Part shown: one piece after another, positions 14,265 to 24,886 of the stretch
How positions within the stretch are numbered: the first letter of the stretch is position 1
Layout: each line of letters begins with the position of its first letter
Source: a bacterium
Lineage (GTDB): Bacteria > Patescibacteriota > Minisyncoccia > Phycocordibacterales > UBA5272
NCBI GenBank assembly: GCA_043736875.1
Contig: JAYTBU010000027.1
Coordinates: forward strand, 1-35,647
Direction of reading: 5' to 3'
Length of the DNA stretch: 35,647 bases
Notes under the pieces: generated by a model
The model's database searches: none
Seen by the model: only the letters and a program-made list of their open reading frames with translations
What the model was told of the DNA's origin: nothing
Made by a program: the position numbers and the translations under genes

Positions 14265-15989
14265 ATGATAATATTAACCGAACTTTTAAAAAGAAATATA
14301 TTATCTGAGCTGCAGGTAAGAGACATAAGTAACAAATTAGATGCGGGAGATGTTTTAACTGTTGATGATGCTTTTAAAGTTTTTAATGTGCAAGCTAGTG
14401 TAGTAAAGCAAGTCAGGTCTGAGATTTTCGCTTTACCAACTTTTGATACTGTAATAAAATTAGACACTAATAATATAAATTATCTAGATCAGAGCATGGC
14501 TAGAAAATATAAGATATTGCCACTTAATTTTTCTGATAATACACTAAGTGTTGGTCTGGTTGACCCAGAAAATCAAGACACTATATCTGTTATAGAAAAT
14601 TCAACCATTAAAAATGGTATCAAATACAAACTTTTTTTAATATCTCAAGATCAGTTTGAGGCAGGTCTGATTGAGTATTTTAATGCAAGTGTAGAAGAAG
14701 AGTCTGCAAAATCATTGGTTTTGGGAGATGTAAATAGTAGTGTCGGAGACTTGGATAAAAAAGAGGCAACAGACATAACCAAATTTGACCAAGATTTATC
14801 TAAAAATATAACAGACGATAGTGTAGATACAATAGTAAACACTCTTATAAATCAAGCTTTAAAGCAAGATGTAAGTGATATACATATAGAGCATCTGGGA
14901 GACAGTCTTCGGGTTAGGTACAGGATAGACGGAGTGTTAGAGAAGAAATTAGAGTTACCACCGAGCATGCACTCATCATTAATAGCAAAAGTTAAAATAC
15001 TTTCTGATATGAAGCTTGATGAAAAAAGAAAGCCACAAGATGGACGTTTTTCTGTCAGGATAGAAGGTCATAAGGTAGATTTTCGTGTGTCATCTATGCC
15101 AGGATACTATGGTGAGAAAGTGGTTATACGTATTTTAGATAGTTATAGAGGTATAAGAAAGCTTGAAAATATGGGTTTTAGTGAGCTGCATTTAAAGCAA
15201 ATTAGAAATGCTCTGCAGAGACCTTATGGTATGATACTCATAAGTGGTCCGACAGGATCTGGAAAAACCACCACTTTATACTCAATGATAAATGAAATAG
15301 ACAGAGATAAAAGAAATGTTGTATCATTAGAAGACCCAATAGAATACAATGTGTCAGGCATGAATCAGTCACAGATATTCCCAGAGATAGGTTATAACTT
15401 TTCTACTGGATTACGCTCTATATTACGTCAAGATCCTGACGTCATTATGGTTGGAGAAATACGTGACGCAGAGACGGCTCAGCTAGCTGTGCAAGCAGCA
15501 CTGACAGGACACTTAGTTTTTTCTACTATACACACCAATAATAGTGTTGGAGTTATAACTAGATTAATAGATATGGGTGTAGATCCATTTTTGATAGCAC
15601 CTACGCTTTGTCTTTCTATAGCACAACGTCTGGTTCCTCAAATATATCCAAAATGTGAAGCTCCTCTTGAAATGGGTGAAGGTTTAAAAGCTATGATAAA
15701 AAAAGAATTTGAAGAATTGCCGGAAAGCTTTAGAGAGAAATTAGATTTGGATAGGCCTGTGTATCAAGCTCTGCCAAATGAAATAGCACCATCAGGAACA
15801 AAAGGTCGCGTACCAGTTTTGGAGATACTAGAAATTGATGATGATATACAAAATGCTATAGTTACTAAAAAATCAGAAGATGATTTGTGGAAAATAGCAA
15901 AGACAAAAGGTATGATAACCATGAAGCAAGATGCTATCATAAAATCTATGAATAAAATAGTTCCATTTGTGGAAATCGCCGGCTTGTAA
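14265..15989 (+). CDS. pilB: Type IV pilus extension ATPase PilB (GspE family)
   Basis: 574 aa counted from the ATG at 14265. Walker A motif is GPTGSGKTTT, plus VGEIRD and FSTIHTN boxes and an N-terminal T2SSE_N-like region. Confidence 0.9.
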   Translation: MIILTELLKRNILSELQVRDISNKLDAGDVLTVDDAFKVFNVQASVVKQVRSEIFALPTFDTVIKLDTNNINYLDQSMARKYKILPLNFSDNTLSVGLVDPENQDTISVIENSTIKNGIKYKLFLISQDQFEAGLIEYFNASVEEESAKSLVLGDVNSSVGDLDKKEATDITKFDQDLSKNITDDSVDTIVNTLINQALKQDVSDIHIEHLGDSLRVRYRIDGVLEKKLELPPSMHSSLIAKVKILSDMKLDEKRKPQDGRFSVRIEGHKVDFRVSSMPGYYGEKVVIRILDSYRGIRKLENMGFSELHLKQIRNALQRPYGMILISGPTGSGKTTTLYSMINEIDRDKRNVVSLEDPIEYNVSGMNQSQIFPEIGYNFSTGLRSILRQDPDVIMVGEIRDAETAQLAVQAALTGHLVFSTIHTNNSVGVITRLIDMGVDPFLIAPTLCLSIAQRLVPQIYPKCEAPLEMGEGLKAMIKKEFEELPESFREKLDLDRPVYQALPNEIAPSGTKGRVPVLEILEIDDDIQNAIVTKKSEDDLWKIAKTKGMITMKQDAIIKSMNKIVPFVEIAGL

Positions 15990-22194: not shown

Positions 22195-22225
22195 ATAAAG
22201 TGTGGTATAATAAAATCATGAAATT
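22181..22225 (+). repeat. 45-bp direct repeat, copy 2 (functional TGgTATAAT promoter and start of the pseudouridine synthase gene)
   Basis: Matches 21573-21617 at 44 of 45 positions. Contains TG at 22203-22204, TATAAT at 22206-22211 and the ATG at 22218 (6-nt gap). Confidence 0.9.
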
Positions 22226-22886
22226 CACAGTAAAAAACACAGGTAGAATAAATAAAGCAATACAGGATACTGGTATGTATTCGCGTCGTGAGGCTGATTC
22301 GTTAATAGAAAGGAGAAAAGTACATGTTAATGACACTTTTGGATATTTGGGTATGCAGGTGAGAGAGGGTGATAGTATAGAGATACGTTCTGGCACAGCA
22401 CAAATAGAAAAGAAATTAGAATATGCGCTTTATTATAAACCAATAGGAGAAGTGACTAGTACAAAAGAAGCAGAACTATTAAAAGGTTTACACCCAGTTG
22501 GCAGATTAGACAAAGAATCAGAAGGGTTGCTGGTATATACAAATGATCCGACACTAACCGAGGCACTGATGAACCCTGAAAATAAAATTGAAAAAGAGTA
22601 TAGAGTTAAGACGAGAGAAAAGAGCTCTCCTAGAGTACCACGCATCATGATGAGTGGTATGTATACTCAAGAAGAAAAGTATGCGCCAGCCAAAATGGTA
22701 AAAGTAGATGATGGGGGACATCACTTGACTGTTGTTCTGGTTGAGGGTAAAAAACATGAGATAAGACGTATGTTAAATGCTCTGAATATGACTATTGTTA
22801 GTCTGAAAAGAATCAGAATACACAATCTGAAAATAGGAACTATGAAGCCTGGACAGATAAAGAAAATAGAGAGACCGGTTATTTAG
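22218..22886 (+). CDS. Pseudouridine synthase, RsuA/RluB/RluF family
   Basis: 222 aa counted from the ATG at 22218. N-terminal S4-like segment (INKAIQDTGMYSRREADSLIERRKVHVN) and catalytic motif VGRLDKESEGLLVYTND. Confidence 0.85.
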   Translation: MKFTVKNTGRINKAIQDTGMYSRREADSLIERRKVHVNDTFGYLGMQVREGDSIEIRSGTAQIEKKLEYALYYKPIGEVTSTKEAELLKGLHPVGRLDKESEGLLVYTNDPTLTEALMNPENKIEKEYRVKTREKSSPRVPRIMMSGMYTQEEKYAPAKMVKVDDGGHHLTVVLVEGKKHEIRRMLNALNMTIVSLKRIRIHNLKIGTMKPGQIKKIERPVI

Positions 22887-22894
22887 TTTTTTGC

Positions 22895-22926
22895 TTGACA
22901 GTATGGGGGGGGGTCTATGCTATAAT
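22895..22926 (+). promoter_or_regulatory. Promoter with consensus TTGACA and TGcTATAAT separated by a 20-nt spacer containing a G9 homopolymer
   Basis: TTGACA at 22895-22900, G9 at 22905-22913, TG at 22918-22919, TATAAT at 22921-22926. An in-frame ATG follows after exactly 6 nt, at 22933. Confidence 0.55.
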
Positions 22927-22932
22927 TTAGTC

Positions 22933-23508
22933 ATGTTTAAGTATTTAGGGTTTGCGTTCTGCGGACCTGACTTAACACACAGAATTATATTCTGTAAATT
23001 GTTCTTTCAGGAGATTGTCATGGAAATGAAAATTGTTTTAAAAAGACCAGCAGTCAAATCATCTCTACTTGATGCAAGGCTGCATTCAGGTGAAAAAGAA
23101 GACTTTATTGTTTGGGGCAAGATCATTGTTGCAGATTTTGAAAGAGAGAAGTCTTACCTCTCAATGACAAAATCATATTCACAAGATAAGGTTGCTGAAA
23201 TGGAGCTAGAATTTAAAAAATACATGTTCCTTTCTTCAAAGTATAAAGATTTAAAATTACCAATGTCTAGGGGTGTAGACGATTTCTGGCACACCGCCAT
23301 TCTAAATACTAGAAACTATCAAACTTTCTGTGAAGAGGTTTTGGGAAGATTTATTCACCACATGCCTACTATTTCAGATGAAGAAAATTGGTCACTTATG
23401 CCAGAGTATTTAAAGAACACAATACCTCTTTACTCTAAACACTTTGGTGCATGTCCAGATCAATACTGGAAGACAGGTTCACATAAAGAATCTTGTTGTA
23501 TTTGCTGA
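22933..23508 (+). CDS. Protein with a WHTAIL...Y..FC...G...HH block (DUF1399/GRDP-like, from memory) and a Cys-rich C-terminus; alternative SD-preceded start at 23020
   Basis: The frame is open from 22891. The ATG at 22933 has the leaderless 6-nt spacing. The ATG at 23020 is preceded by AGGAG (23009-23013). The protein contains DDFWHTAILNTRNYQTFCEEVLGRFIHHMP and ends ...GACPDQYWKTGSHKESCCIC. It carries the only TGA stop seen in the window. Confidence 0.55.
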   Translation: MFKYLGFAFCGPDLTHRIIFCKLFFQEIVMEMKIVLKRPAVKSSLLDARLHSGEKEDFIVWGKIIVADFEREKSYLSMTKSYSQDKVAEMELEFKKYMFLSSKYKDLKLPMSRGVDDFWHTAILNTRNYQTFCEEVLGRFIHHMPTISDEENWSLMPEYLKNTIPLYSKHFGACPDQYWKTGSHKESCCIC

Positions 23509-23512
23509 CTCT

Positions 23513-23543
23513 AAAAATCCAGTCTTCGGCCTGGATTTTTTTT
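23513..23543 (+). terminator. Rho-independent terminator
   Basis: AAAAATCCAG-TCTTCGGC-CTGGATTTTT followed by additional Ts. Confidence 0.7.
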
Positions 23544-23563: not shown

Positions 23564-24886
23564 ATGAAAAAAGAAATTTTTATACTAAATACACTTTCTA
23601 AAGAAAAAGAAAAATTTACCCCTCTCAGAGAGGGTGAGGTTAAAATATATCACTGTGGTCCTACGGTCTACTGGAATCAGCACATAGGAAATATGAGAGC
23701 TGTTTTTTTTGCTGACATAATAAATAGGGTTTTTAGGTTTAATAATTACAAGGTGATTCTGGTTAGAAATTATACAGATGTTGGGCATCTTACTGGTGAC
23801 AACATAGGAGATGCTGACACTGGTATCGATAGAATGGAGAAAGCTTCTCTGAGAGAAGGTCTATCTGCTTTAGAAATATCTAACAAGTATATAAGTTCAT
23901 ATCTAGAAGATATAAAAATGTTGAATGTTATACTCCCAGATTTTACACCATCTGCAACAGAGCATATTGTTGACATGATTAATATGGTTGAGATTTTAAT
24001 ATCCAAAGGTTTTGCTTACATTACAGATCTGGCAGTATATTTTGATGTTAAGAAAGCTAAAGATTATTATAGACTGTCTGGTCAAAAGTTTTCTAAATTA
24101 AAAGAAGGGGAAGGTTTTGGCCAGGTATCAGATTTAAATAAAAGAAATAGTAATGATTTTGCCTTATGGTTTTTTAGAGCAGGTACACACTCTAACATAT
24201 TACAGTTTTGGAGCTCCCCCTTCAAGTCTTCTTTGGTAGAAAATGGACAAGGTTTCCCTGGTTGGCATATAGAGTGTTCAGCTATGAGTAAATTTTTTCT
24301 AGGAAATAGTTTCGATATTCATCTCGGCGGAATAGAACACATTCCAATACATCATACAAATGAAATAGCTCAATCAGAAAATGCTAACGGAGAGAAGTAT
24401 GTCAATTATTGGATGCATAATGAGCATTTACTTGTGGAGAATAAGAAAATGTCAAAGTCAGAAGGTACATCTTTTTTACTAAGCGATGTAATCAGTATGG
24501 TAGATAATTTTGATGGAAATAAAAAAATCTCAGAATCTTTGAAGGCTTTAGTTTTAAGATATTTTTTCTTGCAAGCTCACTACAGATCAAAACAAAATTT
24601 TACAACAGAAGCACTAAAAGCTTCTTTTTCAGCCTATAATAAATTATTAAATAAGATTCATTTTATGGGGCTAGAGTCCTCACATTTTTTTGGAGTTGTT
24701 AATGAGCATTATATTAATAAGTTTACTTTGGTTATAAATGATGATTTTAATACTCCCAAAGGTTTAGCTATTTTGTGGGAGCTCATAAAGGATAAAGATG
24801 TTTCAAATTCTGAAAAATTAGAAACTATTTTTGAGATGGATAAAGTGCTAGGTTTAAATTTAAAAATAGAGAGGCCTGTTATCTAG
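23564..24886 (+). CDS. cysS: Cysteine-tRNA ligase
   Basis: 440 aa counted from the ATG at 23564. Contains CGPTVY...HIGN (HIGH motif), WHIECS and KMSKS. The upstream extension in the ORF track overlaps the previous gene and a terminator. Confidence 0.92.
   Translation: MKKEIFILNTLSKEKEKFTPLREGEVKIYHCGPTVYWNQHIGNMRAVFFADIINRVFRFNNYKVILVRNYTDVGHLTGDNIGDADTGIDRMEKASLREGLSALEISNKYISSYLEDIKMLNVILPDFTPSATEHIVDMINMVEILISKGFAYITDLAVYFDVKKAKDYYRLSGQKFSKLKEGEGFGQVSDLNKRNSNDFALWFFRAGTHSNILQFWSSPFKSSLVENGQGFPGWHIECSAMSKFFLGNSFDIHLGGIEHIPIHHTNEIAQSENANGEKYVNYWMHNEHLLVENKKMSKSEGTSFLLSDVISMVDNFDGNKKISESLKALVLRYFFLQAHYRSKQNFTTEALKASFSAYNKLLNKIHFMGLESSHFFGVVNEHYINKFTLVINDDFNTPKGLAILWELIKDKDVSNSEKLETIFEMDKVLGLNLKIERPVI

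Follow-up and report, generated by a model that had tools for sequence, protein, structure and literature searches.

The window analysed here, a 35,647-nt stretch of DNA (contig C27), belongs to a 33% GC genome (G000) that comprises 668,598 bp in 55 contigs and is 90.9% complete. An Rfam search of the window found only tRNAs. The locus of interest lies on the forward strand between two genes. The upstream neighbour (22218-22886) encodes a pseudouridine synthase (RsuA/RluB-like) with a leaderless-type start at 22218, and its stop codon is located 8 nt 5' of a -35 hexamer. The downstream neighbour is cysS (23564-24886), which encodes a cysteinyl-tRNA synthetase (CysRS). The region between them contains a promoter with perfect consensus boxes, and the locus reads ...tttgcTTGACAgtatGGGGGGGGGtctaTGcTATAATttagtcATG... 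The -35 hexamer TTGACA lies at 22895-22900, which in the assembled state corresponds to -38 to -33 when counted from the predicted transcription start at 22933. A homopolymer of nine G occupies 22905-22913 (-28 to -20), and the extended -10 element TGcTATAAT occupies 22918-22926. The order is thus TTGACA-gtat-G9-tctaTGcTATAAT, in which the TTGACA-to-TATAAT spacer of 20 nt is divided into 4 nt, G9, and 7 nt including the TGc. A homopolymer of at least about 8 nt between the -35 and -10 boxes, which defines promoters of the phase-variable type, is therefore present. The preliminary description had given the same boxes, the same run, and the same spacer, and its coordinates proved exact on re-reading.

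The predicted transcription start coincides with a leaderless-type ATG (22933-22935), 6 nt past the -10 box and in frame with the gene. A Shine-Dalgarno sequence (AGGAG, 23009-23013) lies 6 nt ahead of a second ATG at 23020, from which a protein of 162 aa is encoded (23020-23508, stop codon TGA at 23506-23508). Initiation at 22933 would add 29 N-terminal residues, giving 191 aa in total. The start at 23020 agrees with the N-terminus of the closest homologue, P0002, which has no such extension. The ATG at 23020, led by the Shine-Dalgarno sequence, and the possible leaderless ATG at 22933 are thus candidate starts, and both may serve. An intrinsic terminator, a hairpin followed by a T run, is located at 23513-23540 and ends the transcript, so that the gene forms a single-gene transcription unit.

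The product had been described as a Cys-tailed protein of unknown role. The tail is CCIC, and the protein can now be placed in the family PF27765 (UCP032817-like). This assignment is a precomputed tag, carried by the window's protein and by 21 homologues; the model is absent from the Pfam copy used, and the Pfam profile search of the 162-aa protein with that copy returned no significant family. In the 22 PF27765 members, D87, W90, H91, H114, and P116 are invariant (motif D-x2-W-H ... H-x-P), and many members have Cys-rich C-termini. The AF2 model of the 162-aa protein is mostly helical (pLDDT 73.7). The protein has no solved sequence relative, and the Foldseek search of its model gave no match in the PDB. 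It contains neither a signal peptide nor a membrane segment, and looks cytoplasmic rather than surface-exposed. None of the functions that are typical, although not strictly defining, of contingency loci (surface exposure, host or phage interaction, restriction-modification, glycosylation) could be assigned to it.

The closest homologue, P0002, is 42% identical to the window's protein and also ends in CCIC. Its gene is located directly upstream of cysS, and its promoter has no G tract. This suggests that the pairing of the gene with cysS is old, and that the G-tract promoter was added in this lineage. Apart from the present locus, an unrelated Logan contig (L212) also carries a PF27765 gene with a Cys-rich tail directly 5' of cysS. 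Two cysS genes are present in the genome, the window copy at 23564-24886 (440 aa) and a second copy at C54:12403-13758, the latter with the architecture seen in G005, G007, and G011. The window CysRS shares only about 40-45% sequence identity with those of genus members. At this divergence, genus synteny gives no orthologous intergenic region. PF27765 homologues do occur behind other G-tract promoters. Within the genome, paralogues lie behind the promoters on C36 and C43, the C43 copy being truncated. In the sister species G006, a homologue lies behind TTGACA-aga-G8-tattgTGcTAGACT, with a spacer of 19 nt.

The promoters of this genome follow a defined geometry. The element TGnTATAAT, the dominant promoter element of the genome, occurs at 373 sites, and an ATG lies exactly 6 nt downstream at 96 of the 373, compared with 0-16 at any other offset between 0 and 15. 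Of these 96 ATG codons, 87 open ORFs of at least 60 aa. The leaderless geometry is pervasive across the genome, and the window contains examples at 22218, 22933, and 34124 on the forward strand and at 15619 on the reverse strand. The fixed TGnTATAAT-N6-ATG arrangement indicates that the element is calibrated as a working -10, with transcription predicted to start 7 nt after it. The C27 promoter has this arrangement, and the ATG at 22933 is listed among these starts with its 191-aa ORF.

A -35 hexamer with at least five of six consensus matches at a distance of 16-18 nt was found for only 29 of 369 extended -10 sites; most promoters of this genome therefore run on the extended -10 alone. Where both boxes are perfect (TTGACA/TATAAT), the spacer is 16-18 nt in 17 of 23 pairs, and the three pairs at 20 nt are all G-tract promoters. 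The earlier view that the C27 spacer is over-long because of its G run is thus confirmed. The further suggestion that the run forms a promoter switch is correct as far as the boxes are concerned, which form a real promoter type of this genome (the 373 sites and 96 spaced ATG codons above). An on/off behaviour is probably too strong a term, given the small number of good -35 boxes. Since promoters here rely mainly on the extended -10, the 20-nt state is probably dim rather than off.

The G9 run had been called highly unusual. This holds relative to composition; the run does not stand alone, however, and belongs to a genome-wide class. Across the whole 669-kb genome, G/C runs of 5, 6, and 7 nt were counted 198, 32, and 3 times, respectively, and runs of 8, 9, and 10 nt occurred 6, 6, and 4 times. 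The run-length distribution is therefore bimodal, and 16 tracts reach at least 8 nt, all within 8-10 nt. Extrapolation of the decay in counts would predict fewer than one such tract. Over-representation of tracts relative to composition, another feature by which phase-variable promoters are recognised, is thus found. According to their context, six of the 16 tracts lie in -35/-10 spacers, three are promoter-proximal, three are intragenic, and four form the arms of intergenic G/C hairpins.

The six spacer tracts share a common layout. In addition to C27, they are TTGACA gta G9 tagcaTGc TATAAT on C51, TTGACG gt G10 tagcaTGc TATAAT on C33, TTGACA gc G10 tagtgTGc TATAAT on C43, TTGACA gaaa G8 ataTGc TATAAT on C36, and TTGATT ttgta G10 taTGt TATACT at C12:5866. 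The spacer is 18 nt on C36 and exactly 20 nt in the other five. The promoter-proximal tracts precede a secreted protein gene (C12:3030) and, on C30, the genes for a small membrane protein and for a secreted, collagen-like protein that exceeds 700 aa; the third is the G10 tract on C31. The intragenic tracts are located at C8:9922, at C8:10803, and in a lipoprotein gene on C21. The hairpin arms lie between genes on C28 (two tracts), C42, and C55. In all nine promoter-associated tracts, the sense strand carries the G. This shared strand could stem from common descent of a single promoter module, in which case a functional requirement need not be invoked. When nine G-tract promoters of G000 and two sister species were aligned, the similarity was limited to a core of about 35 nt, (G)CTTGACAG..G8-10..TA..TGCTA. 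The sequences beside the G run differ among the six spacer promoters.

The promoters on C33 and C51 lie close to contig ends. At C33:1-140 and C51:1-140 (-), the G10 and G9 promoters are followed by an identical 90 nt, after which the contigs end. The identical C33/C51 overlap of 99 nt is probably the k-mer of the assembler. The repeated element behind the two promoters is thus cut off, and searches of the rest of the assembly and of the genus did not recover it. The 16S rRNA gene (G000:C55:5683-6684) is truncated by a contig end at model position 492, and the assembly lacks its promoter and the 5' third; a link between this truncated gene and the C33/C51 promoters was sought, and none was established.

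Length variation of the tracts was examined by comparing copies of the same locus. For the C27 locus, no identical or near-identical second copy was found in other assemblies; exact-protein look-ups with four proteins of the locus gave no matches, and a protein-seeded metagenome scan gave no relatives. Other loci of the genome do differ from their counterparts. The C31 tract is ttgc-G10-taactatttgttat here and G9 in the sister species G007, with the same flanks. The intergenic hairpin at C28:34436-34462 has C8...G9 here, versus C7...G8 in G007:C59 (L196), where both arms are one unit shorter and the flanks are conserved. The spacers of the G-tract promoters in G007 are 20, 19, and 17 nt. An FkbM methyltransferase gene is split into ORFs of 132 and 191 aa exactly at a G8 tract (C8:9922-9929, -). 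The second ORF matches positions 22-172 of the 173 in PF05050, and one extra G (G9) would restore a single frame. Beside this split gene lies a GT9-like ORF with an in-frame G8 (C8:10803), and the two look like a pair of phase-variable glycosylation genes. A further tract, an in-frame poly-C (C8, coding ..TPP..) at C21:6541-6548, lies near the 5' end of the predicted lipoprotein gene and is a candidate site of translational phase variation.

Metagenomes were searched with the unbiased pattern TTGACA-N0-7-G8-N0-10-TGCTATAAT. Contigs were found with identical 12-nt flanks on both sides, in which the G count alone differs. For the promoter TTGACACCC-Gn-TATGCTATAAT (also written cggtaaaaccggTTGACACCC-Gn-TATGCTATAATattgtcgacaaa), n is 8, 9, 10, 15, or 16. 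For TTGACACC-Gn (also written gtaaatcgggccTTGACACC-Gn), n is 8 in 27 contigs and 9 in 10 contigs. With at least four more cases, G-count variation was observed in at least six metagenome promoters, and the length varies in 10 of the 15 cores that were seen more than once. The class of G-tract promoters is thus demonstrably hypervariable at other loci and in other organisms. The mismatch repair domains of MutS (PF00488) and MutL (PF01119) were not detected in the 91%-complete genome, in which the controls were positive.

In the light of these analyses, the G9 tract at 22905-22913 is most likely a promoter switch that works by strand slippage, as in porA and tp0126, restated as a "dimmer" that is currently low; a probability of roughly 0.6 is given to this reading. 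The run would be a simple-sequence repeat that is prone to slippage and under selection, in a promoter of the sigma-70 type. The placement of the tracts between the boxes, which is conserved, and the bimodal run lengths argue for selection. Transcription would start at about 22933, and the single-gene transcript would end at the terminator. Translation would begin at the ATG at 23020, and possibly also at the leaderless ATG at 22933. Replication may add or remove G residues, with no detectable MutS/MutL, and the distance between -35 and -10 would shift. In the assembled majority state of 20 nt, the consensus -35 would be out of register, and the extended -10 alone would sustain a low level. 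Loss of two or three G residues, to G7 or G6 (spacers of 18 or 17 nt), would bring the perfect -35 into play, and expression would rise strongly. The tract would thus act as a heritable and reversible control, graded rather than on/off, since even at 20 nt the promoter is expected to match the usual output of promoters that have no -35. The dependence of expression on tract length is suggested by the 16-18-nt norm of this genome and by the published systems. The C27 promoter would belong to a group of six or more such promoters specific to this lineage, within about 16 poly-G/C contingency tracts.

Several observations do not fit this model easily. From a spacer of 20 nt, two to three slippage steps would be needed to reach the optimum, which makes a poor toggle. 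The prevalence of 20 nt, both in five of the six promoters here and as the peak of the class, looks like selection for that length rather than like random changes around 17 nt. The PF27765 protein has no signal peptide and no obvious contingency function. Finally, the promoter of the closest homologue P0002 has no G tract, and one of the G-tract promoters in G007 precedes a trpS-like gene, which should be essential. The last observation argues for graded control as more likely than an all-or-none switch.

The main rival explanation is a fixed promoter element, in which a G-containing spacer of about 20 nt is itself the selected functional state; there would be no switch, and length changes would be slow evolutionary noise. 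As a variant, the G run might alter DNA geometry, or might be read by RNA polymerase or another factor. The distribution of the class across phyla is in its favour, as is the 20-nt length of five of the six promoters here. A scan of species-representative genomes, which covered spacers of 18 nt or more, identified 42 sites with a G8-G16 tract in the spacer of a consensus promoter (loci L027-L066). The hosts include gut Bacilli and Clostridia MAGs, Ca. Ancillula (five sites), Campylobacter, Helicobacteraceae, Brocadiaceae, Kiritimatiellae, Acetothermia, and one Moraniibacteriota genome. The spacer totals are 18 nt (3 sites), 19 nt (10), 20 nt (19), 21 nt (9), and 23 nt (1), so that 38 of the 42 sites fall at 19-21 nt. 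The 20-nt mode is independent of the G length, from 8 to 16, and the flanks compensate. C33 and C51 hold 20 nt by an A/G substitution (gtG10 versus gtaG9), and the trpS-like target in G007 is also in keeping with a constant element. The peak at 20 rather than at 18-19 nt is not a truncation effect of the scan. However, the unbiased metagenome scan gave unique-core spacers of 14-24 nt centred near 17, and promoters with identical flanks have different numbers of G in different samples. In experiments with poly-G spacers (porA, tp0126), the optimum stays at 17 nt (PMC7864442). The fixed element is therefore regarded as unlikely.

The occurrence of the architecture within the phylum was also examined. 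In its strict form it was found in 0 of 400 evenly sampled other Patescibacteria genomes, which argues against a general polymerase preference of the phylum; a phylum-wide promoter style is ruled out by the same count. A somewhat more permissive pattern, applied to 60 relatives, gave hits in G007 and G049 only. This rarity suggests that the G-tract promoters here are a lineage-specific expansion. In other phyla, the genes downstream of the class mostly encode secreted or surface proteins, prepilins and pilins, and collagen-like proteins, together with a glycosylation gene (glycosyltransferase). These genes are classic contingency cargo.

Two readings of the 20-nt mode can be compared. The majority phase may be kept dim on the long side of the optimum, which is also the more mutable side. 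Alternatively, G-filled spacers may have an optimum of about 20 nt instead of 17, and the mode (five of six promoters here, 19 of the 42 sites) would then represent the ON state; if so, RNA polymerase would accommodate poly(dG) spacers differently. The published optima of 17 nt favour the dim majority phase over a functional length of about 20 nt. The porA and tp0126 data argue against the 20-nt optimum, although they come from two organisms only, and this optimum is considered rather improbable.

The remaining alternatives are weaker. The run might be proposed to be an artefact of sequencing or assembly, or a neutral relic that leaves expression unchanged. Poly-G artefacts of two-colour chemistry exist, and some relatives have G runs at contig ends (e.g., G043:C7:7-25). 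However, the C27 tract lies inside a 35.6-kb contig and is flanked by unique sequence, and the same architecture is seen at six loci of this genome and again in two sister species. The bimodal run lengths and the conserved placement between the boxes argue for selection, also against a relic. This explanation is thus highly improbable. A spacer of 19-20 nt between consensus hexamers is a hallmark of MerR-family promoters, in which the regulator twists the over-long spacer to realign the boxes; the G tract would then be the operator. The 20-nt spacer of C27 is the feature in favour. However, a search of the genome for MerR-family domains (PF13411, PF00376) was negative, dyad symmetry is lacking in the spacer, a homopolymer not being palindromic, and the flanks of the G run differ among the six promoters. 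A MerR-type long-spacer promoter was rejected on these grounds, and hardly any weight is left to it. The preliminary description had also raised a translational switch, in which the tract would lie in an N-terminal extension (ATG 22903, GGG GGG GGT ...); such a frame does exist, open from TTG 22891 or ATG 22903 through 23508, and the C43 paralogue is likewise open across its tract, but no Shine-Dalgarno sequence precedes 22903, read-through from the preceding gene is the only upstream promoter, the peptides upstream of the C27 and C43 genes have nothing in common beyond what the promoter boxes encode, the C36 paralogue and P0002 have no such extension, and at spacers of 17, 20, or 23 nt this is the sole stop-free frame across TTGACA...TGCTATAAT, so that its openness appears to be automatic and the switch can scarcely be credited.

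The slipped-strand reading can be compared with several known systems. Promoter switches built on homopolymers are a textbook means of bet-hedging in pathogens adapted to a host. In Mycoplasma hyorhinis, the vlp genes form a paralogous family in a reduced genome, with a poly-A tract in each promoter spacer, and the Vlp products are surface lipoproteins. Both vlp and G000 thus combine a paralogous family with homopolymer spacers; the tracts are poly-A there and poly-G here. The poly-G contingency loci of C. jejuni (the "phasome") are mostly intragenic tracts. The likeness to G000 lies in a small AT-rich genome with no detectable MutS/MutL, a bimodal excess of 8-10-nt G/C tracts, and intragenic tracts in glycosylation and methyltransferase genes. 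Unlike in C. jejuni, nine of the 16 tracts in G000 are promoter-associated, six of them inside -35/-10 spacers.

The closest parallels are found in N. meningitidis and T. pallidum. In N. meningitidis porA, as in C27, a G homopolymer of about 9-11 nt lies in a sigma-70 spacer, and slippage alters the distance between the boxes and with it the level of porA transcription (summarised in PMC7864442). In tp0126 of T. pallidum, as in porA, a poly-G tract lies between the two boxes and transcription is best at a spacing of 17 nt, and tprL promoters with 10 G have near-background activity (PMC7864442). The common porA lengths are at or just under the 17-nt optimum, whereas the assembled state of C27, at 20 nt, is three above it. 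The porA target is an outer-membrane porin; the C27 target is a small, apparently cytoplasmic PF27765 protein. The host of C27 is a CPR bacterium that, unlike the porA system, relies mainly on the extended -10, and length variation is demonstrated for porA and a candidate property for C27. T. pallidum resembles G000 in having several paralogous genes (tp0126, tprL/tprE,G,J), each with a poly-G tract at its promoter (PMC7864442). The tp0126 tract lies between -35 and -10, as in C27, and single isolates contain it at different lengths (PMC7864442). In Treponema, the targets are outer-membrane proteins, and length variation in vivo and reporter effects have been measured, whereas for C27 both are predictions.

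The proposed mechanism is thus of a known kind (porA, tp0126), and for simple-sequence phase variation in Patescibacteria/CPR no report was found in the open literature searched. These bacteria carry few regulators and probably live attached to other cells. In that setting, some 16 slippery tracts would stand in cheaply for regulation and would also create population heterogeneity. The tracts in G000 touch the promoters of a paralogous protein family, genes of secreted proteins, and glycosylation genes. Such tracts may also explain frameshifted "pseudogenes" in MAGs, a single assembly capturing the majority phase only.

Further features were seen near the G-tract promoters of this group. In G007, two reverse-transcriptase-like genes have a G tract at their start or immediately ahead of it, G10 at G007:C51:92-101 and G12 at G007:C14:25026-25037 (L190, L192). 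A short motif, AAGT(T)TTTAG(G/A)TTC, recurs in the leaders of several G-tract promoters, about 12-25 nt past the -10. It occurs in the window at 22935-22960, on C36 at about 1665-1700, in G007:C14 (L191), and in G006:C69 (L022). In C36 and G007:C14, the motif is part of a hairpin (aataagt...acttatt).
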